From Escherichia phage ph0011: 64,000 nucleotides of DNA. Shown one piece after another: positions 14,225-64,000 of the stretch. Position numbers and translations under genes: made by a program. The first letter of the stretch is position 1; each line of letters starts with the position of its first letter. The DNA lies in the sequence record OP557969.1, one strand, 5' to 3'. The notes beneath the pieces were generated by a model. It searched no databases, was not told the origin of the DNA, and saw nothing but the letters and a program-made list of their open reading frames with translations.

Positions 14225-14255
14225 AAAGCTCGTCTATTGACGGGCTTTTCTTTTG
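14225..14255 (+). terminator. intrinsic terminator
   Basis: aaagctcgtc/gacgggcttt hairpin (one G-U pair) followed by T-rich run. Confidence 0.6.
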
Positions 14256-14288
14256 TGTGTATAATACAAAGAAATATAGGAGGAAATT

Positions 14289-14855
14289 ATGGTCAAATCA
14301 TTACTACCACCACCAAAACGACATAAAATTAAAGAAATGAAAGAACAACGTACATTAAAGATGTACAACAATTTAGTTAATTTACTTTGCAAAAGTCCAT
14401 CACTCAAAGAAATATTCACCACAGATGATGATCGTAATGCACTTATTGAGATGAAGTATATGCTCAGTAAAATGTCCTTTTACAAATTTGTCAAAGAATA
14501 CTCAACTGAACCATTCAGTCCTCGTTGGCGAGTCAAACCAAGAGAGTATTTTTTCGGTGGTTCATATACTGATATCATTCAAGATACGGTGATAGGCGTA
14601 GAGTTCGAGATTGATTATGAGCCTAATGGTGTGGAAAACTGGCAGATTGACAAACATTTACCAAGTGAAGATGAAATTTATGTTTATGCAAGAAAACAGT
14701 CAACTTTCAGTTCAAAAATTGCTCTTAATAATTTAGATTCATTTATTATTTTCTATACATTTGTCGGTGTAGATAAAATGGCAACTAAACTCAATGAATT
14801 ATCATTGCAACAAAAACAGATTAATGCATACAAAGACATTACAGATTTATACTAA
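14289..14855 (+). CDS. hypothetical protein, paralogue family member 1
   Basis: AGGAGG SD; shares motif TTDDDRNALIEMKYMLSK with next two genes. Confidence 0.55.
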   Translation: MVKSLLPPPKRHKIKEMKEQRTLKMYNNLVNLLCKSPSLKEIFTTDDDRNALIEMKYMLSKMSFYKFVKEYSTEPFSPRWRVKPREYFFGGSYTDIIQDTVIGVEFEIDYEPNGVENWQIDKHLPSEDEIYVYARKQSTFSSKIALNNLDSFIIFYTFVGVDKMATKLNELSLQQKQINAYKDITDLY

Positions 14856-14867
14856 TGAGGATTGGAT

Positions 14868-15383
14868 ATGTTTTTTGGACAGTTTAAAAAACCTGACAGT
14901 ACTTTAATTTGGCATGAAATCATCTTTAAAATTATATCTAAAAGCTACTCACTAAAAGATATTATCAAAACAGATCATGATCGACGTGTTCTGTTAGAAG
15001 CAAAATATAAATTGAGCAAACACCCGTTACTTTCTTTAATCATTGATTACGTTAATGATTATGAATCCAGTCGTTGGAAGTGGGAAGACGGAGGTTTATT
15101 TCGTGGAAAAACATTCTACGGTGCAGAACGATATGTATTCAGTGATACAGCAAATGGTGTTAAGTTTGCTATTAGAAACTTTAACTCCAAAGAAAATGAT
15201 TATCTTGAAAGTGGAGTTAAGGTGTATATAGATAATAATAACAATGTACTTACATATGACGAATCACTAATTATGTTACAAATAATGCGTGGAGTTGAAA
15301 GTGTAAGACACAATCTTACTAAGTTGAAAATCCAGCAAAATGATATACATAATAGACAGAAAATTAAGGGTTTATATAAATGA
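14868..15383 (+). CDS. hypothetical protein, paralogue family member 2
   Basis: GAGGA-7nt-ATG; motif KTDHDRRVLLEAKYKLSK. Confidence 0.5.
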   Translation: MFFGQFKKPDSTLIWHEIIFKIISKSYSLKDIIKTDHDRRVLLEAKYKLSKHPLLSLIIDYVNDYESSRWKWEDGGLFRGKTFYGAERYVFSDTANGVKFAIRNFNSKENDYLESGVKVYIDNNNNVLTYDESLIMLQIMRGVESVRHNLTKLKIQQNDIHNRQKIKGLYK

Positions 15384-15889
15384 TTTCATTTTTCAAAAAG
15401 AAAGAAAAAGTTGATGAAACTGGATTAGAATCGTTTCTATGGACTCTTATCATTAAAAAAAGTCCATTAATGAAAGAATATGCTATCAATGATGCTAATA
15501 GAAAAACTATCATTGAATACAAATACGAATTATCAAAATGTGATCCAATAGTTTATCACTTTGCGAAGTACTGTTCTAAAAATTTATCGGATATCACGAT
15601 TGAACACGAGTCAGTACCAATGAGTTTTCCTTATGGTGATTGGGTAAATACTTTTGATATTTTCGATGGGTCTAATGGATTCCGTTTCTTTTACTCGTCA
15701 AATAAAGCAAATGTTCGTATTAAAACTGAGATAGGTTGGGCACAGCATAGCACAAATAAAGAAGATTATAATTTACTAGCTGACGTATACCGAAGTGTGA
15801 AGAATTCAAAGGATATTGATGAAAGAATTAAAAAGCAAAATCGTATTTCTTTATCACTTGAAACATACAAGTCAAAGTATGGTGGTTAA
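15380..15889 (+). CDS. hypothetical protein, paralogue family member 3
   Basis: ATGA overlap; motif INDANRKTIIEYKYELSK. Confidence 0.5.
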   Translation: MISFFKKKEKVDETGLESFLWTLIIKKSPLMKEYAINDANRKTIIEYKYELSKCDPIVYHFAKYCSKNLSDITIEHESVPMSFPYGDWVNTFDIFDGSNGFRFFYSSNKANVRIKTEIGWAQHSTNKEDYNLLADVYRSVKNSKDIDERIKKQNRISLSLETYKSKYGG

Positions 15890-15891
15890 CT

Positions 15892-16293
15892 ATGACTACA
15901 GTTGATGATATCTATAGTACTATACGCAATATGAGCACAGATAGAAAAGTATTTGGTGATAAAGAAAAATCTAAGTGTTATGGTATTGATTCTTTTGATA
16001 TAATTTCGTATGAGTACAATACGAATGGAAATAGTTCACTGAATATTGTCTGCCCTCGTGACCCAGAAAATAATTTTATGTATGTTGAAATTAATAATGA
16101 TGGAATGTTTTTTACAAAAGTTTTTAAAGGTGGAATTAATTACGAAACAATTGAATGTATGAATGAAGAAACTTTCTTTCAAGAAGATACAATTATCAAT
16201 TTAGGTTTTAGTTTTGATGATTATAAAACATTAGAACATGACTTTAATCGTTATTATAACGGTTTCTTAAAGGAGTTAACAATTTATCTATGA
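15892..16293 (+). CDS. hypothetical protein
   Basis: ORF track; tight spacing. Confidence 0.45.
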   Translation: MTTVDDIYSTIRNMSTDRKVFGDKEKSKCYGIDSFDIISYEYNTNGNSSLNIVCPRDPENNFMYVEINNDGMFFTKVFKGGINYETIECMNEETFFQEDTIINLGFSFDDYKTLEHDFNRYYNGFLKELTIYL

Positions 16294-17522
16294 ATAACCA
16301 ATATGTTGAACAAACAATAGTGAAACACTTGGCTGGGTCACAAGCCTACGGAACCAGTACACCTGAAAGTGATACTGATTATCGTGGTATTTTTCTTGCT
16401 AATAAAGAATTTATTCTTACGCCATTCTATAAGGTTAAAGAAGTAGCTGATAAAAATGAAGAAGATACCAAATTCTATGAGTTAAATCAGTATTTAAAAT
16501 TATACACTGATGCTAACCCTAATATTCTGGAATCACTATGGGTTGAACCAGAACACATTGTAGAAAGTACTGAGATTTATGACTATCTTCGTTCATTTAA
16601 CCAAAAACTTCTTAGTTCCAAGATTGCATTTTCATACACTGGATATGCATATAATCAAATTAAACGTATGACAAATCACCACGGTTGGATGGATAAAGAG
16701 CGTATTGCTGAAAAACGTTTAAATGAGATTTTAGAAGAACACCCAGTCGATGAGGTTCTTGTGTGGATGTATGATTCATTCCCACAATATCTTGTTGACC
16801 GTTTAGATACATCCAAATTACATCCATTTAATGCTAAAAAGATTGATTTTGAAAAATACATGCGTGATACGTCATTGCAGTTAGTTTCGAAAAATCCATT
16901 AAAGCAATATCATTTTGTAAGATTAGTGCATAACTACACTACTGATAAAATTCTAGATCGTGATTTCAATTTATTGAATTTTAACAATGGGTATGAACTA
17001 ATTCATTACGGAGAAAACATTTTTGCGATTATTAAAAATCCAAATGAAAGTACAATCAACGGTGATGGTTCATTGCGACATTTTTCAAAAGAGCGTAGTA
17101 CTGAAGAGTTGAAAACCAAACCAGAACTAATTGTCAAATTTAACGAAAAAGAATATCAGGAAAATAGTGAGAATAGAAAAAGTTATCATAAATGGAAAGA
17201 AAATCGTAATGCCAAACGTGCTATTTTAGAATCACTACACGGCTATGATTGCAAAAGTGCAATGCATACCATTAGACTATTGAATAGTGCAGAAGATGCA
17301 TTACAAAGTGGGATTATTCAAGTTAAACGCCCAGATGCACAGATGTTGATGGATATTCGTAATGGTAAATGGAAGTATGAAGAAGTTTTAGAATATTTCG
17401 ATGATAAAGTAAAATATATCCGTGATGTTCTATATAAGAAATCAGAACTTCCAAAAAAACCAGATATTAAATTAGCATCGAAAATTATCATTGATATCCG
17501 AGAGATGCAATGGTATAAGTAA
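16290..17522 (+). CDS. Pol-beta superfamily nucleotidyltransferase
   Basis: N-terminal hAGSQAYGTSTPESDTDYRGIF = G[SG]x9-13DhD nucleotidyltransferase signature; ATGA overlap. Confidence 0.6.
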   Translation: MNNQYVEQTIVKHLAGSQAYGTSTPESDTDYRGIFLANKEFILTPFYKVKEVADKNEEDTKFYELNQYLKLYTDANPNILESLWVEPEHIVESTEIYDYLRSFNQKLLSSKIAFSYTGYAYNQIKRMTNHHGWMDKERIAEKRLNEILEEHPVDEVLVWMYDSFPQYLVDRLDTSKLHPFNAKKIDFEKYMRDTSLQLVSKNPLKQYHFVRLVHNYTTDKILDRDFNLLNFNNGYELIHYGENIFAIIKNPNESTINGDGSLRHFSKERSTEELKTKPELIVKFNEKEYQENSENRKSYHKWKENRNAKRAILESLHGYDCKSAMHTIRLLNSAEDALQSGIIQVKRPDAQMLMDIRNGKWKYEEVLEYFDDKVKYIRDVLYKKSELPKKPDIKLASKIIIDIREMQWYK

Positions 17523-17616
17523 TATATGGGTGTAATAGTTATAAAAAATTCCATTACACACCAAATCACTTCAGTGATTTATATCTTGACATTGAAAAAA
17601 ATAATTATGTATAGTT

Positions 17617-17647
17617 AGAGAACTTCATATGGAGTTCTCTTTTTTTA
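17617..17647 (+). terminator. intrinsic terminator
   Basis: 10-bp stem agagaacttc/ggagttctct, 4-nt loop, 7 T. Confidence 0.75.
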
Positions 17648-17660
17648 TAAGGGTGATTAA

Positions 17661-18062
17661 ATGTTAAATGAACGTATTAAAAATGCACTATATGTATTGA
17701 ACCAAGAAGTTAATTCTATTAATAAAAGTACTGAGCGATATAAAGTATTACATGAAATTAGACAAGAATTGGAATCTATTAATAAGGGAAAATGGGTTCT
17801 TGAACGCGAACGAACTATTGTTGAAAAAGCAATTGCAAAATTCATCTCTGAACGTTATGGTAAAATTTCAGAGGAAGATGTACTAATGAACTTACATCTT
17901 TCACAAACGGAAGTGATGGAGAAATTTCATTTTGATTCATTAGACTGGTTGGAAATGATCATGGAATTGGAAGAAGAATTCAATGTAGAAGTAGATTTAT
18001 ATTATGAAAAACAAGAAACCAAACTATATGAACTAGCAGAACATATTAAACTAATGATGTAA
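17661..18062 (+). CDS. acyl-carrier-protein-like protein with N-terminal extension
   Basis: C-terminal FDSLDWLEMIMELEEEFNVEV matches ACP phosphopantetheine-attachment region (DSLD ... ALEEEF). Confidence 0.55.
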   Translation: MLNERIKNALYVLNQEVNSINKSTERYKVLHEIRQELESINKGKWVLERERTIVEKAIAKFISERYGKISEEDVLMNLHLSQTEVMEKFHFDSLDWLEMIMELEEEFNVEVDLYYEKQETKLYELAEHIKLMM

Positions 18063-18115: not shown

Positions 18116-18490
18116 ATGAGTGTACTAGAAATTATTGTTTCAAAAATTTTAATTCCATATTGGAAGCCGATTTCTTTTGCGTTATTACTCGGTGGTGCGG
18201 CATTATCAGGTTGGAAAGCTAATACTTATTATACTGGTTATCAGCAAAGTATCGAGCAACAAATAGCCAAACAGGTTGATGTCGCACTTGATAAAATGCA
18301 ACAGGAAAATGCAAAAAATTACATTGAAACAAAAAAAATCATGGAAGATAATGCTAAAGTTATTGAAACGAAAGTTCCTTATATAGTAGAACGCAAAGTT
18401 TATAAGAATGTGTGTTTAGATGAAGATGGCGTGAAAATTCTAAATGATCTAAAACAAAATTCACAAGCAATGAGGAATAAGTTAAAATGA
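18116..18490 (+). CDS. putative i-spanin (Rz-like)
   Basis: single N-terminal TM (ISFALLLGGAALSGW) followed by charged coiled-coil-like region; followed by overlapping lipoprotein gene. Confidence 0.5.
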   Translation: MSVLEIIVSKILIPYWKPISFALLLGGAALSGWKANTYYTGYQQSIEQQIAKQVDVALDKMQQENAKNYIETKKIMEDNAKVIETKVPYIVERKVYKNVCLDEDGVKILNDLKQNSQAMRNKLK

Positions 18491-18795
18491 AAAAAATATT
18501 AGTCCCAATGATTTCTTTTTTAATTATAAGTGGTTGTGCTGAACAAGCAAAACTACAATCACCTGCACCTATTAAACAAGAAATTCTATTAGAAAGATGT
18601 GATGATGATACACCTCTGCCACAAAAAATCATGATTGACAATAATGGTTTTAAAGGTTATGATGGTGCAGAAATTCTTAAAGTACTTACTCGTTGGGATG
18701 CAATCTATAATGAGTGTGCTTTAAAACATGATGCCTTGATTAAAACTATTCGCGATTTACAAGGCAAAGATATTAAAATTAATATCAAGGAATAA
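18487..18795 (+). CDS. putative o-spanin (Rz1-like lipoprotein)
   Basis: signal peptide with lipobox IISGC; start overlaps i-spanin stop. Confidence 0.5.
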   Translation: MKKILVPMISFLIISGCAEQAKLQSPAPIKQEILLERCDDDTPLPQKIMIDNNGFKGYDGAEILKVLTRWDAIYNECALKHDALIKTIRDLQGKDIKINIKE

Positions 18796-18796
18796 A

Positions 18797-19414
18797 ATGA
18801 ACAAATATCATGTTTACTATAAGACTAATTTATCACTACTGGAAAAATTAAACCATAAAAGTACTAAGATTAAACACTACACATTAAATGGAATTACTTT
18901 TAAGTATTTTCCACAAAAAGTTCTTACATTTATTAAGAATCCAAAATGCATAGCATGTGGTATTGAAGCAACAGAAGTACGTATTGAACGTACATTTAGT
19001 TCTGACCCAATTTTCGGTAAACCACATTTAAATCTATATGCAGTATGTGGTCTTTATGAAGTTTTAATGACAGTTGACCATAATAATCTAGCATCAAAAG
19101 GTGGTCCAGATTTAGAGTCGAACTTTAATACTATGTGCTCCAGATGCAATCAACTACGTTCAAATAAAACTGAATCAGTTGATGAGTTTCTTGTGAAAGT
19201 TAAAGGTCGTAATCTTCTACAAGAACATATGAATAATTTCTTTAATGTGCAAAATGGACAAAAGAAAAATAGTATTGATAAATCAAAACTACTAGAAGAA
19301 CGTAGATTACAACAAGAATTATGGGAAACTGATCATTTATGGCATGTTCGAGAATTTGGTCGCCATATGAAAGCGTTAAAAAAAGAACAAAAGAAATTGA
19401 ACAATCACAATTAA
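18797..19414 (+). CDS. HNH-family endonuclease (free-standing, homing-endonuclease-like)
   Basis: CIACG ... VDHNNLASKGG ... CSRCNQLRSNK resembles His-Me finger HNH motif with Cys zinc ligands. Confidence 0.55.
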   Translation: MNKYHVYYKTNLSLLEKLNHKSTKIKHYTLNGITFKYFPQKVLTFIKNPKCIACGIEATEVRIERTFSSDPIFGKPHLNLYAVCGLYEVLMTVDHNNLASKGGPDLESNFNTMCSRCNQLRSNKTESVDEFLVKVKGRNLLQEHMNNFFNVQNGQKKNSIDKSKLLEERRLQQELWETDHLWHVREFGRHMKALKKEQKKLNNHN

Positions 19415-30644: not shown

Positions 30645-31757
30645 ATGAAAAAGTATTTGGTTGGAGGTTATACGAGAGATCGTTTAATGGGCATCCGTGC
30701 AAAAGACAAAGATTATGTCATTGTTGGTGCAACTGAATCCGATATTAAGTACTTGCAAAGTATTGGTTATAAGCAAGTAGGCAAGGACTTCCCTGTGTAC
30801 TTGAGTCCAGAGGGTAATGAACACGCATTGGCTCGTACCGAGCGTAAGACTGGTACTGGATATGGTGGTTTCGAAGTGAATACAAAAGGTGTGACACTAG
30901 AACAAGATCTATATCGTCGTGATCTCACAATCAATAGTATTGCTTATGATCCAGTACTCCAGATTCACATCGACCCTTATGGTGGGAAAGCTGATATCAA
31001 GAACAAAGTACTTCGTCATGTATCAGAACACTTTAAAGAAGATCCATTGCGTGTTCTACGTTTGGCCCGTTTCGCTACACGTTATTCAGACTTTTCTATC
31101 CATGAAAGTACAGAGGAACTTGCTATTAGTATGGTCAATAGTGGTGAATTAGATCATCTTGTCCCAGACCGTGTTTTTGTTGAATTTGAAAAAGCACTTT
31201 CTGAAGAAAAACCATCTAAATTCCTCAAAACCCTAAGTAAATTTGGTTATTATGAGAAAGTTTTCAAAACATCTCTAACTAAAAAGAATTTAGACATAAT
31301 TGATTATATTTCTGATAACTGCACGGATGTATATAAACCATATTTCTTGTGGGCAGTACTTCTTGAAAATGAAGAAGTAGATAATAATTCTGTTCTAAAT
31401 GGTGCTATTAAAGTACCAGTAAAGTATGTAAAATTTAGTAATTACATCAAACGTTTTTCTGATGATATCAAAACCTTCCGAAAAAAGACCCCAGATGAAA
31501 TGGGTAATATTTTAATGGAAATGAATATCAAAAACAACGGAGGTGAAGGATTCCTTTATAAAGTATTGGAGTATTTCATTTTACGAAAAGAAATCGATTT
31601 AGAACATGAAGACCTGATTGTTAAAGTATATGACAGATATACTGATGTAGTATTACCTGATATTCAGCAACTGGTGAAAGACGGTGAACTTGAAACATCA
31701 GAAATTCGTGATTTTGTTTGTGGGCTACGTTACGAAGCAATTAAACAATTATTCTAA
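30645..31757 (+). CDS. cca: tRNA nucleotidyltransferase (CCA-adding enzyme / poly(A) polymerase family)
   Basis: MKKYLVGGYTRDRLMG ... GYKQVGKDFPVYL ... ALARTERK ... RRDLTINSIAYD matches class II nucleotidyltransferase head domain as recalled from E. coli Cca. Confidence 0.85.
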   Translation: MKKYLVGGYTRDRLMGIRAKDKDYVIVGATESDIKYLQSIGYKQVGKDFPVYLSPEGNEHALARTERKTGTGYGGFEVNTKGVTLEQDLYRRDLTINSIAYDPVLQIHIDPYGGKADIKNKVLRHVSEHFKEDPLRVLRLARFATRYSDFSIHESTEELAISMVNSGELDHLVPDRVFVEFEKALSEEKPSKFLKTLSKFGYYEKVFKTSLTKKNLDIIDYISDNCTDVYKPYFLWAVLLENEEVDNNSVLNGAIKVPVKYVKFSNYIKRFSDDIKTFRKKTPDEMGNILMEMNIKNNGGEGFLYKVLEYFILRKEIDLEHEDLIVKVYDRYTDVVLPDIQQLVKDGELETSEIRDFVCGLRYEAIKQLF

Positions 31758-31867
31758 AAAAATCGGGACAAAAAACCAATAACTGATATAATTATTAGTA
31801 TCTGAACATCGATTGATGACAAAGAGATAAGATATGCGTTATAGTTGTGGAATAATATTTTATCGTG

Positions 31868-32266
31868 ATGGGCAGATACTTATCGGGCATACAACACGGA
31901 CAGAATCATTGGGATTTACCTAAAGGGAAAGCTGAGGGTAATGAAACATTTAAAGAAGCTGCTGTCCGTGAGTGCTACGAAGAGACAGGATACGAAATTG
32001 ATGAAGATGATCTTTTGTTTCTTGGTGATGTTTCCTATAGAAAGGGAAAAAGGCTAGTACTTTTCTTTTATACTGCCAAAGACAAACCTGTACCTGAAGA
32101 ATTAGTTTGTAAAAGTACTTACACTAACAGATACGGTAAGAGTCATCCAGAATTGGATAAGTTCATGTACATTGATGTACGAGAATGTCAAAAGTATTTG
32201 ACTGAACGAATGTGTAACAGTATTATTAAAGCTGTTAAAGCTTTTCAAAGAAATAGAAGGAAATAA
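31868..32266 (+). CDS. Nudix hydrolase (apparent +1 frameshift relative to a 29-codon upstream ORF that encodes the expected N-terminal beta strands)
   Basis: Nudix box GKAEGNETFKEAAVRECYEETGY (Gx5Ex7REUxEExGU); WDLPKG upstream; N-terminal segment MRYSCGIIFYRDGQILIGHTT is in frame 31834..31923. Confidence 0.7.
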   Translation: MGRYLSGIQHGQNHWDLPKGKAEGNETFKEAAVRECYEETGYEIDEDDLLFLGDVSYRKGKRLVLFFYTAKDKPVPEELVCKSTYTNRYGKSHPELDKFMYIDVRECQKYLTERMCNSIIKAVKAFQRNRRK

Positions 32267-55990: not shown

Positions 55991-56020
55991 AAAAGGGAGA
56001 ACATATGTTCTCCCTTTTTT
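55991..56020. terminator. bidirectional intrinsic terminator at the convergence point
   Basis: aaaa-gggagaaca-ta-tgttctccc-tttttt: perfect palindromic stem flanked by A-run and T-run. Confidence 0.8.
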
Positions 56021-56021
56021 A

Positions 56022-58313
56022 TTATCTAATTGTTACCAATGTTCTTCCGTCGAAACGTACATCAGGAGTTGAAGGTATACTAAACACCACGTTAGTGCCG
56101 TTAAACGTCACGCTATCGACCTCAACACGAGTATATACACCAGGGCTAATCTGTTCCTGTATCTCTGCTGTAACGATGTTTGAGGCTGTTACTGTAAGGG
56201 TGTATGAATCACCACTTAATACCCATGATGAAATAGTAAATGCGTCTGTCCTAACTGAACCTGAACCAATAGGAACCCATTGCCCTTTTACCTTTTGCAT
56301 AGAGGTTCGTTCGGATGTAGAGTATGCAATCATACCATCGACACCCACTGAGTTATCAATGCTTGCTAGTACTGGCAACTGAATACCATATCTATTAAAA
56401 CGTGTACGGATAGTTCCATTATCATAGATACTTACATCAGCATAATTACCCATAGAAAGTTTCAAATCCGCTCCATCCAATGTCATTGAACTTTGATTTG
56501 TATTACTTTCTAGTGTGAGTACACCGTTAGCTAATAAATTGATATTTTTAAATTTATTACTATTTCCTTTAAAAGTTGTATTAGCATTAAAAGTACTTGC
56601 ACCGTTAACTACAATAGTATTTTCTGCTGTGTCGCCTAATATGGTATTACCATTCAAAGTGGTTTCACCATCTACTACAATATTGGATTCGAAAGTACTA
56701 TTACCATTTACTACAAGATTGGATTTAAAAGTTCCATCACCATCTACGTCTACAGTAGAATGGAAAGTACTCTTACCATTAACCACAATAGTATTTTCTG
56801 CGGTATCACCCAATATGGTATTACTATGAACAGTCAAATTACCACTGGTGGTAACATTACTAGCTAGTGTATCACCATTCAATGTACTTGTTCCATCTAC
56901 TACAATATTGGATTTGAAAGTACTTTTACCATTAACCACAATAGTATTTTCTGGGGTTTCACCCAATGTTGTATTACCATGAACATTCAAATTACCACTA
57001 GCAGTAATATTACTAGCTAATGTATCACCAACCAATGTACTAGTACCATCTACTACAATATTACCATGAAAAGCACTTTCACCATTTTTGAATTCAACTT
57101 GTTCTTTATTCATTGAACTAAATGAAATGATATTACTACTTGCACTTATTCCAACATTAGTATTAGTTGGATTATCGAATCTCAGAACTGGCGTTGACGC
57201 AGGTGATGATGTTGATTGATATAATGTCAATGTCGAATTGGTAATTCTAATACGTTCAGTTCCAGAAGTACTGAATCCAATAGCATCATCAGCAGGATGA
57301 AAAATACCAGTATTCGTGTCTGACCATTTTTCAGGGTCATTACCTGGGTTGCTTACTGGGTCGTATGGGCTATTGTTAAATGCAATTGCTGGTGCGGTAG
57401 CACTACCATAGGTCACACCAAATCTACCACCTCCTACTGTACCATCGTCGTACATGGAATCACCAGTCCTACGTAAGCATTCAATTACAACGTTGTCGAT
57501 TGATGTTTGAACGGTTCCTGCATTCGTTCTAAATGGACGATTATTTGCAATCATGATAGTATTATCATATAATACTGAAGCTGCTGAAATACTAGTTCTT
57601 GATTGACGAAGGCGAATGTTTTTATCTTCAGTGATAATGATCCAATCACCATCTGATAGTGCTGTTTGGTTCATTGGTACACCGGATGCAAACGGTTTAG
57701 TTAAATCTTCATCAGTTGCTAAGTTTACTAGCCCACTATGACCAGTACTGGGAATGGCGGTAGATACAATTCTCGCAAAAGCATATGTTACGAGTTTAGC
57801 ACCAGAAATATTTGGATTAGAATCAACATAATATAAAATTTCTACCCAATCACCCTGACCAGTTGGGTTAGTTGGAGTGAATGTCACTGTACTTGTTGTT
57901 GGTTTATTAGCTTCAAAGTGTGCTTGTGCTGCATCTATAATACCACGTACAACATAATAATCACCACTAAGTGATGCTGTAGGTGCAGGTAGTGGACTTT
58001 GTGCCAAAGGTGGGTCTATATCATCAGGGATTGGATTATACGTACCAACAAATTGTAAACCACTAGTTACTGAATCTGGTAACTGTGATGTAAGAAGTTT
58101 GCCGTTAGCATCTAAGTTTGCAAAACGTCTATATGCCATCGAGCCATCTTCAAAATCCAGAACACCCTCGAATGATTTCCATTCTTTATTGTATCTAATC
58201 ATCCCTGATCTTATTACGTCAGCGGTTTCTTTTGATGGTGCTTTTGGTAACTCTAAAAAAGATTTACTATCAATAATTACACCACCATCACCTCTAATTC
58301 GATTTATACTCAT
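56022..58313 (-). CDS. putative tail fibre / tailspike-like protein with tandem ~37-aa beta-rich repeats
   Basis: 763 aa; repeats NTIVVNGKSTF.SNIVVDGTSTL.GDTLASN.T.SGNL.VH.NT.LGDTAENTIVVNG; GAGGA SD before ATG at 58313. Confidence 0.55.
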   Translation of the reverse strand: MSINRIRGDGGVIIDSKSFLELPKAPSKETADVIRSGMIRYNKEWKSFEGVLDFEDGSMAYRRFANLDANGKLLTSQLPDSVTSGLQFVGTYNPIPDDIDPPLAQSPLPAPTASLSGDYYVVRGIIDAAQAHFEANKPTTSTVTFTPTNPTGQGDWVEILYYVDSNPNISGAKLVTYAFARIVSTAIPSTGHSGLVNLATDEDLTKPFASGVPMNQTALSDGDWIIITEDKNIRLRQSRTSISAASVLYDNTIMIANNRPFRTNAGTVQTSIDNVVIECLRRTGDSMYDDGTVGGGRFGVTYGSATAPAIAFNNSPYDPVSNPGNDPEKWSDTNTGIFHPADDAIGFSTSGTERIRITNSTLTLYQSTSSPASTPVLRFDNPTNTNVGISASSNIISFSSMNKEQVEFKNGESAFHGNIVVDGTSTLVGDTLASNITASGNLNVHGNTTLGETPENTIVVNGKSTFKSNIVVDGTSTLNGDTLASNVTTSGNLTVHSNTILGDTAENTIVVNGKSTFHSTVDVDGDGTFKSNLVVNGNSTFESNIVVDGETTLNGNTILGDTAENTIVVNGASTFNANTTFKGNSNKFKNINLLANGVLTLESNTNQSSMTLDGADLKLSMGNYADVSIYDNGTIRTRFNRYGIQLPVLASIDNSVGVDGMIAYSTSERTSMQKVKGQWVPIGSGSVRTDAFTISSWVLSGDSYTLTVTASNIVTAEIQEQISPGVYTRVEVDSVTFNGTNVVFSIPSTPDVRFDGRTLVTIR
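56560..57060 (-). repeat. tandem in-frame nucleotide repeats (about 111-nt units) inside fibre gene
   Basis: recurring blocks accacaatagtattttctg ... atggtattac visible on + strand text. Confidence 0.55.
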
Positions 58314-58361
58314 TTAAATATTTCCTCAGAATAGATTATATATGATGTATTTATTTTAGAT

Positions 58362-58393
58362 AAAAGAAAAGGCCAAGTATAGACCTGGCCTTT
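58362..58393 (-). terminator. intrinsic terminator (- strand) after 58400..59179 gene
   Basis: aaaggcca/tggccttt stem; T-rich tail on - strand. Confidence 0.55.
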
Positions 58394-58399
58394 AAAAAA

Positions 58400-59179
58400 T
58401 TATTTATTACGTTCAGGTATCTGAATACCTTCATATACCCATTTAGCAGCTTGTTGTGCTTTATAAATTGCATCTGGGTCAGAATCATCAACTGCATCAA
58501 TCGCTGCACATTGCTCTTCACATTCAGAAAATAGTTTTTCTACCATTGCGGATACTTCAGTATATAGTTGTGTCATTTCTTCTGAGGTAAGTTTTACAAT
58601 AGCATCATCCAGTATGATAGTGACATTTTCAGCACCCGACACTACTTGTGTATAATAATTAAGTAGCATTTGACGACCTGCAAGATCGGTATTGTAGCGA
58701 TGACCTTTGAATTCATAACCTGAATTAACACGAAATGCTCTCTCAGATAATGTTCTTTCTTTTAAATCTGTTTTTACATCAGCAATGGGTACATCAACAA
58801 AATTATAAGTTTTAAGTACTGTTAATGCTTTATATTCATCAGTTGCATCTTCCAAAAATTCCACCACTGGTTGCTTTTCATCTTTCAAACGAACATATTC
58901 CAATTGTTGGCCTTTTGAATTCACATTACCGACATTTTTATATTCTAACCACCAAAAACCTTCTTCTTTTCTCACTACATCATTCGGCTCTACTGGTGAA
59001 CCATCAACACTGGAAATTCCGTACAGAGTTCTAATATCACTATAAAGATAACGATAAGTCTGAGTATCATCGGGAGTTGCACCTGGACGTTCTTTAAGAC
59101 CTTTAACACCAATTGGATTAGTAATAATATTACCCAATTCATAATTTTCTTTTGAATCACCTTTCACATATGTGAACAT
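58400..59179 (-). CDS. hypothetical protein between two fibre genes (possible fibre assembly/accessory protein)
   Basis: 259-codon ORF; GAGGTAG SD; position between fibre genes. Confidence 0.5.
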   Translation of the reverse strand: MFTYVKGDSKENYELGNIITNPIGVKGLKERPGATPDDTQTYRYLYSDIRTLYGISSVDGSPVEPNDVVRKEEGFWWLEYKNVGNVNSKGQQLEYVRLKDEKQPVVEFLEDATDEYKALTVLKTYNFVDVPIADVKTDLKERTLSERAFRVNSGYEFKGHRYNTDLAGRQMLLNYYTQVVSGAENVTIILDDAIVKLTSEEMTQLYTEVSAMVEKLFSECEEQCAAIDAVDDSDPDAIYKAQQAAKWVYEGIQIPERNK

Positions 59180-59241
59180 ATAACTACCTCATTTGTTATG
59201 ATGGTGTCACCAAGTATAGGTGACACCTTTTATTATAATTA

Positions 59242-62200
59242 TTAAGCGGTACGTTGAGCAATAAACATATCTGCTACTGAACTTACACCATCGTAAATTA
59301 CCTGATAGATAGTTACAGAGTTTGCAGTTTTATTTAGAGTCCCATCAACAACAGCATATGTACCATCAGTAGTAAAGTTTCTATTACCAGTTGCATCTTG
59401 TTTAACATAAATGTATACTGATGATGCTTTTCCACCACCGATTAGACCAGTGATTGGTGCTAGAGTAGTATCTTGATCAAGAGTGATGAAGTATACGTTG
59501 CTAGTACCGTCAGGGGTCCAAGTACCATTCGGTGCAATAACAGAGGAAGTTACTTTACTTGGAATAACATCATACTTTTTGGTAGTTACGGTTGTAGTGG
59601 CGAGTTCTGCGTTGGTTGTAGTTAACTTACCAGTAACAGTTACTTCTTTATCAAACACCGCATTTTCTTTGAAAGTTGGTGTTGAATTAACAGTTAGTGT
59701 GTCAGTATTAGTATTACCTAAAACCACACTACCACTTGCTGTCATCAAACCAGAAACAGTTAGTGTACCACCAATAGTTGCATTACCAGTTACTGATGCA
59801 CTAGCAAGTGTAGCTGCACCAGATGTAGTTATTGTTGTAACAGATGCTGCCTCTAGTGTGGTTGCACCAGTTGCGGTAAGTTTACCATCAACTACTAGAT
59901 CACCAGTTACGGATGCACCACCGGACATTGTTACTGCCCCACCGAATGAACCAGTTGTAATTACTTCAAGTGTGTTACCTTTTAGTAATTCAGTTGCTGT
60001 GATACTTGTACCAGCGGTAATGCTTGTACCCGCAGAAACAGTATTAGTTGCAGTTAAGGACTTCACAGCTACATCAGAGTTAGCTTGGTTAAGTTTAGCA
60101 TTTAGAGTACCTGTTACTGTGAAGTCACCGTTGTTAACAACATTACCATTGATAGTTAGATTGTTATTTTGTGAACCGACATCACCAATTGTTGCTGATT
60201 TAGAAATTAACTCAGCACCAGCGGTAATGTTGCCAGCAGCACTGATATTGTTTGCTGCAACAACTGCATAAGGTTCAATTGTTTGACCACTAACATCAAT
60301 ATCTGCGTTAATACCACCATCAACACGCAAAGAACCAGCAATATATGTATTAGGGAAAATCTGAACAGTTTCAGTGTGTTCACCGACCTGTGTACCAACA
60401 ATAACATTAGATCCAGTTTTCACTGCACCAGAAGTTGTTAGAGAACCTACTGTTGCTTTGCCAGTAACACCTAGTGTACCGCCAACAGTTGCATTATTAG
60501 TTACTGCCAATGCTGTTCCTTCACCATTCAGTGTAATTGATGGAGCAGTTGCTTTACCAGTTACATCTAGTGTACCACCAACAGTTGCATTACCATCTGA
60601 ATGTATTGTTGTTGCAACAGAAAGACTGTTTGCAATTACATCCGCACCAGTCAAATCCAATGCACCTGGTGTTAATGTACCAGTAATGTTAACATTATTA
60701 CCAAAGGTTGCTGCACCAGTTACATCTAGTGTAGTGCTAAATGTACCAGAAGTTGCAGAGATTGCACCAGATTCAAGTGAACCAACAGTGGTTTTTCCAG
60801 TTACACCCAGTGTACCACCAACTGTTCCATTTGTTGTAACTTCTAGTGTTCCAGTACTTAGATCTTTTGCTGTCACTTTACCAGATGCGTTAACAGTTGT
60901 TGTTGTAACACCACCACTTAGGGTGCTTGTCCCAGTAACACTGAGTGTTTTTGCTGCACTAACGCTGTTTACAGTAAGATCAGCACCTGATAGGTCTAAA
61001 CCACCTTCAGGAATAAAATTACCCTTAACTGTTAGTTGTTGAACAGTACTGTCACCAGTTACATCTAGTGTAGAAGCAGTCAAACCACCATTCATACTTG
61101 CTGCACCAGTAACATCTAGTGTAGTTGTTACAGTTGCACTGTTTAGTGTGGAGCTACCGGAAATATTAGCACTAGGTGCAGTAATAGATCCTTTTACAAC
61201 TTGTACATCACCCGCAACAACATCAATACCACCAGCATTAACTGTTAGTTTTTCAGCAGTATTCAACGTACTTGAAATTGTTGTTGCACCAGTTAAGGTT
61301 GTAGTTCCAGCTACACTTATGTTTCCAGAGATAGATGGATTACCTGTAATGTCACCAGTAGTGAGAACCAATTCAGTACCTACAGTAGTAGAACCAGTAC
61401 TTTCTAGTGTTACACCAACGATGTTTGCAGAACTTAGGTTAATAGTACCATCAACAGTTAAGTTACCGTGAACGGTCGCATCACCAAGTGAATTTAATGT
61501 TTTCACTGAAACATCAGTTTTACTAAGGTCAATTACACCCGCAGTAAGTGTTCCAGATACTGCCAAATTACCAGTTATTGCTGTATTTTTAGTAATAGAT
61601 ACTGTTTCTGATGCTGACGTAATGGAGCCAGCAGTAAGTGCCCCACCAATGGTTGCATTGTTAGTTACGGTTAACGCTGTTTCTTCACCAGATAGTGTTA
61701 AAGAAATACCATTCATTTCACCAGTAATATTTGCCGATGCCGCAGAAATATCACCAGCAACTACCGCATTTGTTGCGTTTAGGGTTGTTGTGGTAATTTC
61801 AGTACTTTTCACTTTAGGTAGTGCGTTGATACCATCTTTACTATTAACTGTAATAATACCAGAACTTGTTAGAGATTTAACAGAAACATCTGCACCACTT
61901 AAGTTAACTGTACCAGAAACAACTAGATCGCCACCAATATTAGCTCCTTCTGTTGTAGTGATTGATTTTGCATTAACTTCAGTGTTACTCAAATCAATTG
62001 CACCAGGTGATACAGTTCCAGAAACTGTGAGATTACCAGTAACTGTAGTATCATTAGAAATAGATACGCCATCATCATTGCTAATTGTTGGGGTTTCAAT
62101 TGTAACAGCTTTAACTTTACCAGAAGAAGTCATGTCAGCAACAGTAGATGCACCAGTGACCTTTAGATTAGTAATATTTGCAGTAGTTGAGCCAAGTGTA

Positions 62201-64000
62201 GTAATCGTACCATCAGTACTTTCTAGTTTAGGAAGAACACTAGCAATAGAAGATTCGTTACTAACAATTGCACCAGTACTAGTTAAAGATTTGACAGTAA
62301 CATCAGCCGTAGTAAGATCTACTGTACCATTAACAGTTAGGTTACCACCAATAGTTGCACCAGCAGTAGTAGTAATGGATTTAGCATTAACATCAGTTGT
62401 TGCTAGATCGATAGAACCTGGAATAACTGCACCAGTAACGGTTAGGTCACCAGTTACATTTGTATTATTGGAAATAGTGACACCACTTGCATTTGAAATG
62501 GTTGGGGTAACCAACGATGCAGTTGTAGTTTCACCAGTTACAGTTAAAGTTGACCCAACTAGAACAGATGAGCTTGAGTAAATTGTACCCAAATTAGCAG
62601 ATCCGGTAACAGTTATATCATCAGCATTAACAGTAGTTGTCGTTATGGTAGTACTATTAAGTACTGGAAGTACGTTAGCATTAACAAGATCATTACTTTT
62701 AACAATACCAGAAGTAGTTAATGATTTAACATTAAGGTTGGCTGCTGATAAATCAAAAGAGCCTTGAACTACTAAATCACCACCAATAGTTGCACCAGCA
62801 GTAGTAGTGATTGATTTAGCATTAATATCGGTAGTGCTCAAGTCTAGAGAACCAACAGTTAAGCTACCAGTAATATCAACATTTTCGGTGAAGTTAGTAT
62901 CACCACTAATAGTTGGTGCAGTAAGATTTGTTGCACTAATATTAGTACCGTTAATTGTTTGCCCACTTACAGTTCCACTCGCAGTGATAGTAGGAGCCGT
63001 TACTTCAGTAGATGCACTAATTGTTGGTGCAGATACAGAAGTTGTACCAGTAATAGTACCAGAACTTACTGAACCAGCGGATAATGCACCAGAAAGAGTT
63101 GCAGTTGTACCAGCAATATCACCAGTAACAGTTAGTTTAGCACCCACGGTAGTGTTACCAGTACTTTCAAGTGTTGCACCTTTAATATTTGCTGCCGCGA
63201 CAACAGAATTAGGTGTTAGATCTTGACCACTAACATCAACAGTTAGTCCAGTTACTGTTCCAGTAAATTCAACATCATTAAGAATTGCCTTACCACCAAC
63301 TGTAAGGTATGGTGTACTTGGGTCTTGAGTATCGTTACCAGTGATAGTTAGATAATCTAGTTTGTTTAGGCCGTTACCAGTAATACCATAAGAAGATAGT
63401 GATGCATTACCAAAGGTAGCAGTTTTAAGTACTTTCAATGTTGCTGGGGAAACCAACTCAGATTGAACTTCATTAGGTAAAATAACGGTTGGACGTTTAT
63501 CTTGTGCGGTATACGCAAAACCTAGTTTCACAGCAGAATCTTGTGAATTTTGACCTAAACTAATAGCTTTAAAAGAAGCAGTACCGTTTAAACCAGTAAT
63601 ATTAGATCCTAGTGTAACACCACCAACTAAAGAAGACGCACCCTTTATATTTAAAGTGTTTGCATCAATATCATCAAGTTGGAAATCACCACCAAATGTA
63701 CCGGAAACATTAATATTATTAAAATTAGCAGTACCAGTACTTTCAATATCTGGAATGGTTGCTGTTCCAGTAACCTCAAAATCAGCAACTTTAGTTTTAC
63801 CTTTTGTCACTTCTAGAAGTGGGGTGTCAGGTGATTGTGTATCGTTACCAGAAACGGTTAGATAATCTAGTTTGTTTAGACCATTACCAGTAATACCATA
63901 AGAAGACAATGATGCATTACCAAAAGTAGCAGAAGTTAAAACTGTCAATTTAGCAGGTGACATTAATTCAGATTGAATTTCATTTTGTAGAATTACTGTT
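59242..64000 (-). CDS. giant repetitive fibre/adhesin-like protein, 5'-partial (N-terminus beyond window end)
   Basis: more than 1580 codons, T/G/S/V-rich; frame stays open past 63963 with residues matching an internal repeat (NEVQSELVSPATLKVL...). Confidence 0.6.
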   Translation of the reverse strand, partial: TVILQNEIQSELMSPAKLTVLTSATFGNASLSSYGITGNGLNKLDYLTVSGNDTQSPDTPLLEVTKGKTKVADFEVTGTATIPDIESTGTANFNNINVSGTFGGDFQLDDIDANTLNIKGASSLVGGVTLGSNITGLNGTASFKAISLGQNSQDSAVKLGFAYTAQDKRPTVILPNEVQSELVSPATLKVLKTATFGNASLSSYGITGNGLNKLDYLTITGNDTQDPSTPYLTVGGKAILNDVEFTGTVTGLTVDVSGQDLTPNSVVAAANIKGATLESTGNTTVGAKLTVTGDIAGTTATLSGALSAGSVSSGTITGTTSVSAPTISASTEVTAPTITASGTVSGQTINGTNISATNLTAPTISGDTNFTENVDITGSLTVGSLDLSTTDINAKSITTTAGATIGGDLVVQGSFDLSAANLNVKSLTTSGIVKSNDLVNANVLPVLNSTTITTTTVNADDITVTGSANLGTIYSSSSVLVGSTLTVTGETTTASLVTPTISNASGVTISNNTNVTGDLTVTGAVIPGSIDLATTDVNAKSITTTAGATIGGNLTVNGTVDLTTADVTVKSLTSTGAIVSNESSIASVLPKLESTDGTITTLGSTTANITNLKVTGASTVADMTSSGKVKAVTIETPTISNDDGVSISNDTTVTGNLTVSGTVSPGAIDLSNTEVNAKSITTTEGANIGGDLVVSGTVNLSGADVSVKSLTSSGIITVNSKDGINALPKVKSTEITTTTLNATNAVVAGDISAASANITGEMNGISLTLSGEETALTVTNNATIGGALTAGSITSASETVSITKNTAITGNLAVSGTLTAGVIDLSKTDVSVKTLNSLGDATVHGNLTVDGTINLSSANIVGVTLESTGSTTVGTELVLTTGDITGNPSISGNISVAGTTTLTGATTISSTLNTAEKLTVNAGGIDVVAGDVQVVKGSITAPSANISGSSTLNSATVTTTLDVTGAASMNGGLTASTLDVTGDSTVQQLTVKGNFIPEGGLDLSGADLTVNSVSAAKTLSVTGTSTLSGGVTTTTVNASGKVTAKDLSTGTLEVTTNGTVGGTLGVTGKTTVGSLESGAISATSGTFSTTLDVTGAATFGNNVNITGTLTPGALDLTGADVIANSLSVATTIHSDGNATVGGTLDVTGKATAPSITLNGEGTALAVTNNATVGGTLGVTGKATVGSLTTSGAVKTGSNVIVGTQVGEHTETVQIFPNTYIAGSLRVDGGINADIDVSGQTIEPYAVVAANNISAAGNITAGAELISKSATIGDVGSQNNNLTINGNVVNNGDFTVTGTLNAKLNQANSDVAVKSLTATNTVSAGTSITAGTSITATELLKGNTLEVITTGSFGGAVTMSGGASVTGDLVVDGKLTATGATTLEAASVTTITTSGAATLASASVTGNATIGGTLTVSGLMTASGSVVLGNTNTDTLTVNSTPTFKENAVFDKEVTVTGKLTTTNAELATTTVTTKKYDVIPSKVTSSVIAPNGTWTPDGTSNVYFITLDQDTTLAPITGLIGGGKASSVYIYVKQDATGNRNFTTDGTYAVVDGTLNKTANSVTIYQVIYDGVSSVADMFIAQRTA
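63329..63990 (-). repeat. two ~150-nt near-identical direct repeats about 510 nt apart inside giant fibre gene
   Basis: gtatcgttaccag ... gttagataatctagtttgtttag ... ttaccagtaataccataagaaga ... tgatgcattaccaaa at about 63329 and about 63839. Confidence 0.7.

Follow-up and report, generated by a model that had tools for sequence, protein, structure and literature searches.

RlaP nucleotidyltransferases take their name from an association with RNA ligase genes (bioRxiv 10.64898/2025.12.29.696909; PMC7824862). In a 2021 survey, RlaP was the RNA-end nucleotidyltransferase found most often in jumbo phages; its distribution mirrored that of the RNA ligases, and its predicted task was to replace nucleotides lost ahead of ligation (PMC7824862). 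Work on two bacterial members, PfRlaP and PaRlaP, reported the addition of one or two nucleoside monophosphates (NMPs) to RNA 3'-OH ends from any nucleoside triphosphate or dATP, a preference for Mn2+ and for the 5' half of a cleaved tRNA mimic, and no action on DNA or protein, with E. coli proteins left unlabelled (bioRxiv 10.64898/2025.12.29.696909). The authors of that preprint proposed that RlaP serves as an antidote against ribotoxins that, like RloC, remove nucleotides after the cut, and placed T4 NrdC.11, of unknown function, in 'cluster 5' of the family (bioRxiv 10.64898/2025.12.29.696909). The nrdC.11-mobD.3 segment of T4 can be deleted in the laboratory (PMC9825161). Here we analysed a 64,000-nucleotide stretch of Escherichia phage ph0011 (sequence record OP557969.1), called the window below, and in it a gene at 16290-17522. 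As judged from its sequence and the conservation of its catalytic residues, the product is a catalytically intact long phage form of the RlaP family of Pol-beta nucleotidyltransferases (NTases), and it adds a further member to a family already described in phages. On balance, our analysis favours a protein that would extend RNA 3'-OH ends as part of tRNA repair during infection.

The long form of RlaP in an Asteriusvirus-type phage

The gene lies on the plus strand at 16290-17522 (coordinates including the stop codon), starts with ATG and encodes 410 amino acids (aa), as given by the list of open reading frames (ORFs) and used in the Pfam, PHROG and AlphaFold analyses. A preliminary description of this DNA had reported the 410-aa ORF with a GS-x10-DTD signature, and the ORF list confirmed it: the peptide HLAGSQAYGTSTPESDTDYRGIF corresponds to aa 13-35, where G16-S17 is followed after exactly 10 residues by D28-T-D30. 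The window is 90-94% identical at the DNA level to Escherichia phages of the 121Q/PBECO4/slurp01/UE-S1 group, which have genomes of ~350 kb. The relative vB_Ec-M-J belongs to the genus Asteriusvirus; the source of the window is an E. coli jumbo phage of the Asteriusvirus type, and the NTase region is present in 35 Asteriusvirus-type records.

Pfam assigned aa 12-131 to PF10127 (RlaP) at 57.5 bits (E = 2.2e-15), where the gathering score is 23, and five relatives likewise scored above this threshold. PHROG 388, 'nucleotidyltransferase', matched aa 3-409 (E = 6.4e-76). Matches of this strength lie far outside what chance would give. The placement in the Pol-beta superfamily made in the preliminary description was right, and PF10127, which it had put forward for comparison, proved to be the correct family. 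NCBIfam returned nothing useful for this protein. Relatives were found by tblastn in 1,207 phage records, including rV5-like phages, a Lak megaphage and T-even phages (gene nrdC.11), and 1.84 billion cluster representatives, searched with a profile, gave 10,653 matches at E <= 1e-3. Identity as a class II CCA-adding enzyme or poly(A) polymerase was rejected, because the Pfam scan found no PF01743 (PolyA_pol head) match in the protein; the PF01743 member of the window is the product of 30645-31757. Class II CCA-adding enzymes (PF01743) also belong to the Pol-beta superfamily and add nucleotides to tRNA 3' ends without a template, but they form a different family with different accessory domains.

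Since the PF10127 match is limited to the N-terminal half, the remainder of the protein was checked separately. A canonical RlaP of 264 aa from Alicyclobacillus spans positions 21-249 of the 249 in the Pfam profile, and hhalign aligned it with the phage family over both domains (probability 100%, E = 8e-45). The alignment covers phage aa 8-130 and aa ~305-402 with a single gap at aa ~131-300, so that the phage protein corresponds to a canonical RlaP plus an inserted module of ~170 residues. On the plus strand, the N-terminal Pol-beta nucleotidyltransferase domain (aa 1-130) is encoded at 16290-16679, the module (aa 131-300) at 16680-17189 and the C-terminal helical RlaP domain (aa 301-410) at 17190-17519. 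The module itself has a helical part (aa ~135-197, nt 16692-16880), mostly a feature of the jumbo-phage clade but also present in two other members of a 32-sequence alignment (P0098 and P0106), and a beta-rich part (aa ~205-285, nt 16902-17144) common to all long-form relatives of ~350 aa.

Residue conservation was assessed in a large alignment to the family profile (n = 429, made up of 268 database proteins, 80 viral loci, 80 cellular loci and the query) and in the smaller alignment of 32 sequences, where identity went down to ~39%. G16 and S17 (nt 16335-16340), D28 and D30 (the D28-x-D30 motif, nt 16371-16379) and D59 (nt 16464-16466) were invariant in 32 of 32 sequences. Across the 429 relatives G16 and S17 were again invariant, D28 and D30 were more than 99% conserved, and position 59 was Asp or Glu in every case. 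D59 is the third catalytic acid, which the preliminary description had sought. That description had also named a lack of conservation of the catalytic aspartates among homologues as the mark of an inactive fold; they are conserved in the 429 relatives, and an inactive fold is therefore clearly not indicated. Further near-invariant residues lie in the C-terminal domain (W302, R306, N307, R310, E314, D320, K322, H326, R329, R347, D349 and R357), several of them in a G-Y-D320-x-K322-x3-H326-x2-R329 motif at nt 17241-17276.

The NTase is an orthologue-level relative of T4 NrdC.11, which falls into PF10127 and PHROG 388 as well. Aligned by hhalign over aa 9-377, T2 NrdC.11 matched it with 97.9% probability (E = 3e-13), and NrdC.11 of T4 and T2 is likewise a phage long-form RlaP, in a phage that has Rnl1 and polynucleotide kinase/phosphatase (Pnkp). 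The two differ in that NrdC.11 is only ~26-29% identical, has 337 aa and lacks the jumbo-clade helical insert. No CCA-adding enzyme was found in the 12.5-kb T2 region around nrdC.11. T-even genomes are not known to encode a CCA-adding enzyme at all. The PHROG 388 NTases of rV5-like phages (Vequintavirinae) and environmental phages are full-length family members with 31-42% identity that share the beta-rich part of the insert, but they have ~350 aa and mostly lack its helical part; many are encoded directly downstream of a CCA-adding enzyme and others between uvsX and uvsY.

The AlphaFold model of the NTase has a mean pLDDT of 91.2. The ~170-residue module is modelled confidently, yet it has no structural relative in the PDB copy searched, in which the PfRlaP structure is evidently not included. 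This fold-orphan insert is the variant feature of the protein; it possibly has a role in substrate selection and is a candidate specificity element. Foldseek against the same PDB copy gave weak superfamily-level matches only, and PDB sequence searches with the protein and with the 32-sequence profile found no chain at E <= 10, the PfRlaP structure again evidently not being included.

These fold matches bear on two other explanations. The NTase might NMPylate a protein, either in the manner of an MNT antitoxin acting against a host HEPN tRNA nuclease or by DrrA-like AMPylation of a host factor. We consider this very unlikely: the matches are weak and at superfamily level, the bacterial RlaPs did not label E. 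coli proteins, and the conserved basic residues of the cleft together with the RNA-repair neighbours point to a nucleic-acid substrate. Identity as an MNT antitoxin was rejected, since such proteins have ~100-150 aa and are paired with a HEPN gene, whereas the NTase has 410 aa, no HEPN gene beside it and weak fold matches. The preliminary description had offered tRNA or RNA end modification and nucleotide signalling as functions without choosing between them; family biochemistry and genomic context support the first, and the second found no support. The production of a nucleotide second messenger or a decoy signal by a CD-NTase- or cGAS-like activity, for which only the shared Pol-beta core speaks, is the least probable of the explanations considered. 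PADLOC gave no match, CdnC and CdnE appeared at Foldseek E > 1 with a probability of at most 0.07 and amount to fold-search noise, no effector or sensor genes are present among the neighbours, and the C-terminal domain is of the RlaP type.

RNA-repair genes in the lineage and around relatives

A CCA-adding-type tRNA nucleotidyltransferase of 370 aa is encoded in the window at 30645-31757 on the plus strand (PF01743 and PF12627; phrog_2244, E = 1e-113), 13 kb downstream of the NTase gene and outside its operon. It has the class II head and neck, and we infer that it is a functional partner of the NTase. The NCBIfam multifunctional CCA addition/repair model covers only aa 1-207 of this enzyme, and no HD domain was detected in it; by the extent of the NCBIfam match, the HD phosphohydrolase domain seems to be missing. 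The next gene, directly after it (31865-32266), encodes a Nudix hydrolase.

The survey for RNA-repair genes covered ~124 kb of a relative's genome. In the relative vB_Ec-M-J, an RNA ligase and a Pnkp are encoded ~38 kb upstream of the NTase gene. The ligase matches TIGR02308 as a T4 RnlA equivalog (287 bits, with the cut-off at 242) and carries PF09511 and PF20819; the Pnkp carries PF13671 and PF25109. The ligase region was present in 35 records of the same phage group, most of which also have the Pnkp; two match the ligase part only.

The surroundings of relatives elsewhere were compared at 80 viral loci, with 10-kb flanks, by unbiased clustering of neighbouring ORFs combined with seed searches, and at 80 cellular loci. 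The viral loci showed two mutually exclusive contexts, one with a CCA-adding enzyme and one with uvsX/uvsY. At 16 of the 80 a CCA-adding enzyme is encoded on the same strand at most 2.5 kb upstream of the NTase, with overlapping ORFs in two, and within this CCA-linked set NTase identity falls as low as 29%. CCA-adding enzymes also occur within 10 kb of RlaP relatives in two cellular loci. Thg1-like genes were found within 10 kb at seven viral loci, all of jumbo phages, and at one cellular locus. In Eneladusvirus-type jumbo phages, the gene for this Thg1-like tRNA 5'-end (3'-5') polymerase (PF04446, E = 3e-32) stands ~3 kb upstream of the NTase; examples are Yersinia phage fHe-Yen9-04 (L004, 4211-4966) and loci L089-L095. 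The cellular locus, where it is near an RlaP relative, comes from a Polyangiaceae metagenome-assembled genome (L032). No Thg1-like gene is present in this window.

Pnkp lies within 10 kb of the NTase in 2 of the 80 viral loci, and no RNA ligase was found within 10 kb in any of them. RtcB is encoded within 6 kb of long-form relatives in 4 of the 80 cellular loci; in one of these four both RtcB (PF01139, E = 3e-131) and RtcR (PF06956 plus a sigma-54 domain) stand beside the RlaP relative. The bacterial RlaPs of the Pseudomonas rtcB-rlaP-rtcA operons share with the phage protein the Pfam family, the three-acid NTase domain and a homologous C-terminal helical domain, the last shown through the Alicyclobacillus RlaP and not PfRlaP itself. 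At genome level, the phage lineage too has RNA-repair partners. The phage protein differs from them in its ~170-residue insert of no known fold and in not being encoded beside an RNA ligase.

On the chromosome of Alicyclobacillus fastidiosus (L038, 5974-8745), the canonical 264-aa RlaP is followed by an overlapping gene for a CCA-adding/repair-type enzyme of 421 aa with an HD domain. The same cluster encodes an MBL-fold hydrolase, which scored 57.6 against the Pfam cut-off of 50 for the anti-Pycsar Apyc1 family and matched RNase Z models weakly.

A predicted role in tRNA repair

The reading of the NTase as a tRNA-repair enzyme is drawn from the activity of the family, the intact active site, the T4-type repair set of the lineage and the linkage of relatives to tRNA-end enzymes. 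In the mechanism that we propose, an RNA 3'-OH end would be bound in the cleft between the NTase and C-terminal helical domains, and D28, D30 and D59 would hold two metal ions. One or two untemplated nucleotides would then be added to the RNA end, putting back in tRNA those that host ribotoxins or immune nucleases had removed, and Rnl1 with Pnkp, or the CCA-adding enzyme, would complete the repair. That the substrate is RNA, that tRNA is the target, how many nucleotides are added and what the insert does are all points that we infer. The preliminary description had called the substrate unknown; for the family this no longer applies, as the bacterial RlaPs act on RNA 3'-OH ends, and for the phage members RNA is the predicted substrate.

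We hold this reading with moderate confidence only, since the substrate is extrapolated from the short enzymes of bacteria and specificity could be altered by the insert. Several further observations weigh against it. The sole biochemistry available for the family comes from a non-peer-reviewed preprint of December 2025 on the short Pseudomonas enzymes (bioRxiv 10.64898/2025.12.29.696909), and we found no experimental work on any phage or long-form RlaP in the literature searched. In every phage member tested the PF10127 model covers the N-terminal half only. The distance of ~38 kb puts Rnl1 and Pnkp beyond the window and outside any operon with the NTase, and ARAGORN found no tRNA genes in the window. 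Two more observations concern DNA. The largest viral context class, 44 of the 80 loci, has the order uvsX-NTase-uvsY, which is a module for DNA recombination and has no RNA-repair gene in its vicinity, and the best structural neighbour of the NTase is Hailong HalB (PDB 9dbh), a DNA-making enzyme. The uvsX/uvsY loci (within L096-L164; for example L100, 8562-9650, and L106, 3223-3681) come from environmental phages, and a gp32-like single-stranded-DNA-binding protein and a helicase adjoin.

The main rival explanation builds on these last two observations and holds that the protein acts on DNA 3' ends or makes DNA. It could do so as a terminal-transferase-like helper of recombination-dependent replication, or it could synthesise oligodeoxyadenylate in the manner of HalB, the product serving for instance as a decoy to keep a Hailong-type channel shut. 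We regard a DNA role as distinctly unlikely. PfRlaP and PaRlaP did not extend DNA, sequence profiles find neither HalB nor any other PDB chain at E <= 10, and a HalA-like partner is missing. Neither this phage nor the lineages linked to CCA-adding enzymes, Thg1 or RtcB have the uvsX/uvsY context, which may be the synteny of one environmental phage group. HalB is a protein-primed enzyme of 217 aa that makes poly-dA and acts together with the HalA channel; none of these features is seen in the phage NTase. Identity with HalB itself was rejected in the absence of a sequence relationship and of an adjacent HalA membrane channel.

Under the tRNA-repair reading, the recurrent pairing of RlaP with CCA-adding enzymes suggests a more specific scheme, in which the long-form RlaP and the CCA-adding enzyme would rebuild tRNA 3' tails in two steps. 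We raise it as a tentative possibility, and on balance an unlikely one. RlaP would restore the discriminator or acceptor-end nucleotide or nucleotides, the CCA-adding enzyme would then add CCA, and the fold-orphan module would recognise the acceptor stem. HepT-type HEPN toxins trim tRNA tails in a way similar to Cas12a3, and a CCA-adding enzyme, which requires a tRNA that ends at the discriminator position, cannot restore such ends by itself. The trimming by Cas12a3 removes 2-4 nucleotides and reaches as far as the discriminator base (PMC12851939). No paper proposing such a two-step rebuild by RlaP and a CCA-adding enzyme was found in the literature searched; if true, it would add a counter-defence that the searchable literature has so far not described.

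tRNAs are a major target of bacterial immunity, with PrrC, RloC, PARIS, HEPN toxins and Cas12a3 as examples. For phage tRNA repair that goes beyond simple nicks, the NTase at 16290-17522 offers a clean representative of the long-form RlaP, a form that occurs in T4 too, and the pairing of the family with CCA-adding, Thg1, Pnkp and RtcB genes points to concrete substrates. In these phages, the annotation as 'nucleotidyltransferase' or 'hypothetical protein' can be refined to 'RlaP-family RNA 3'-terminal nucleotidyltransferase (predicted)'.

Gene neighbourhood and further observations

Three tandem paralogues at 14289-15889 precede the NTase (188, 173 and 169 aa). They match phrog_18641 twice and phrog_7868, with cross-matches and ~30% identity. 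Pfam and PHROG scans found no known domain in this array, and it therefore gives no functional lead. Between the array and the NTase, the ORF list has a 133-aa gene at 15892-16293 on the plus strand (phrog_22376, E = 2e-82), whose stop codon overlaps the NTase start codon (ATGA); from this arrangement the two may be translationally coupled. The phrog_22376 gene also abuts the NTase start at loci L085, L001 and L086-L088, where the jumbo-phage NTases are only ~60% identical.

Two gaps, at ~14.23 kb and ~17.6 kb, contain the best two promoter-like sites of the region and two terminator-like hairpins, all of them consensus matches. In the first gap (14225-14265, plus strand), a terminator-like hairpin at 14225-14248, with a 10-bp stem followed by a T run, overlaps a promoter-like TTGACG-17-TATAAT at 14237-14265 (11 of 12 positions matching), both lying within the intergenic sequence. 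In the second, the 139-bp gap after the NTase gene, a promoter-like site at 17586-17615 and a terminator-like hairpin at 17617-17640 are found on the plus strand (17586-17640). Judging by these signals, the three paralogues, the 133-aa gene and the NTase probably form a five-gene unit (14289-17522) that starts at ~14225-14265 and ends at ~17586-17640, and the latter signals probably also start the unit of the gene that follows.

That gene, at 17661-18062, encodes an acyl carrier protein (ACP)-like protein of 133 aa that matches PF00550 exactly at the cut-off of 20.8 bits as well as ACP PHROGs. It has a DSL phosphopantetheine-site motif and is extended at the N-terminus by ~55 aa; no gene for a phosphopantetheinyl transferase or for acyl handling was seen among its neighbours. 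The paralogue array, the ACP-like gene and the CCA-adding enzyme had all been named in the preliminary description, and each was confirmed. The link that it implied between the NTase and the ACP-like gene was not supported: terminator-like and promoter-like sites lie between the two genes, and their adjacency is lost in phage 121Q and in Yersinia phage fHe-Yen9-04. In 121Q (L085, 11230-14805) they are ~3.5 kb apart, the extra DNA being missing from the window and from UE-S1, and in the Yersinia phage three genes separate them. In all other lineages examined the ACP-like gene is absent near the relatives.

The ACP-like neighbour gives rise to one more explanation, namely that the NTase modifies a small molecule, in an ANT-like manner, or a carrier protein, by loading a prosthetic group onto the ACP-like protein. 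The Pol-beta-type enzymes CitX and MdcG load a prosthetic group onto an ACP-type carrier. With the intervening transcription signals and the loss of adjacency just described, and with the family by sequence being RlaP and not ANT, such an activity is highly improbable here. The ACP-like protein was rejected as a functional partner, as its adjacency is not conserved and transcription signals stand between the genes, and it is probably unrelated to the NTase. Other PBECO4-type relatives align only up to the end of the NTase gene, which is consistent with a difference like that in 121Q, and the region after the NTase appears to vary between close relatives. In the window, a spanin pair (18116-18795) and then an HNH endonuclease gene (18797-19414) lie further downstream.

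Two kinds of unusual homologue were seen in the family. Homologues of ~680-760 aa carry an insertion of ~300-340 aa exactly inside the invariant C-terminal GYD-x-KHAMH motif, between the positions of D320 and C321 of the query (P0121, P0122, P0123, P0126, P0136, P0138 and P0144; TH47 MT446416, 348695-350959; loci L136, L151 and L163). The insertions begin with Cys and end in ...QGN, followed by T or C, which are intein-like ends; Pfam recognised no intein or homing endonuclease in them. In six other homologues (P0147, P0163, P0192, P0185, P0206 and P0162), an RlaP-type NTase is naturally fused to a C-terminal 3'-5' exonuclease of the RNase T/DEDD type, identified by Pfam as PF00929 in two (E ~1e-22) and by BLAST in the other four. 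The fusion suggests, from domain content, a 'trim and rebuild' enzyme for 3' ends.

At the far end of the window (~56000-64000), GC skew and AT skew both change sign at ~56 kb, and the long ORFs turn to the minus strand (56022-58313, 58400-59179 and 59242-63963). The position at ~56 kb is probably a boundary of transcription modules.

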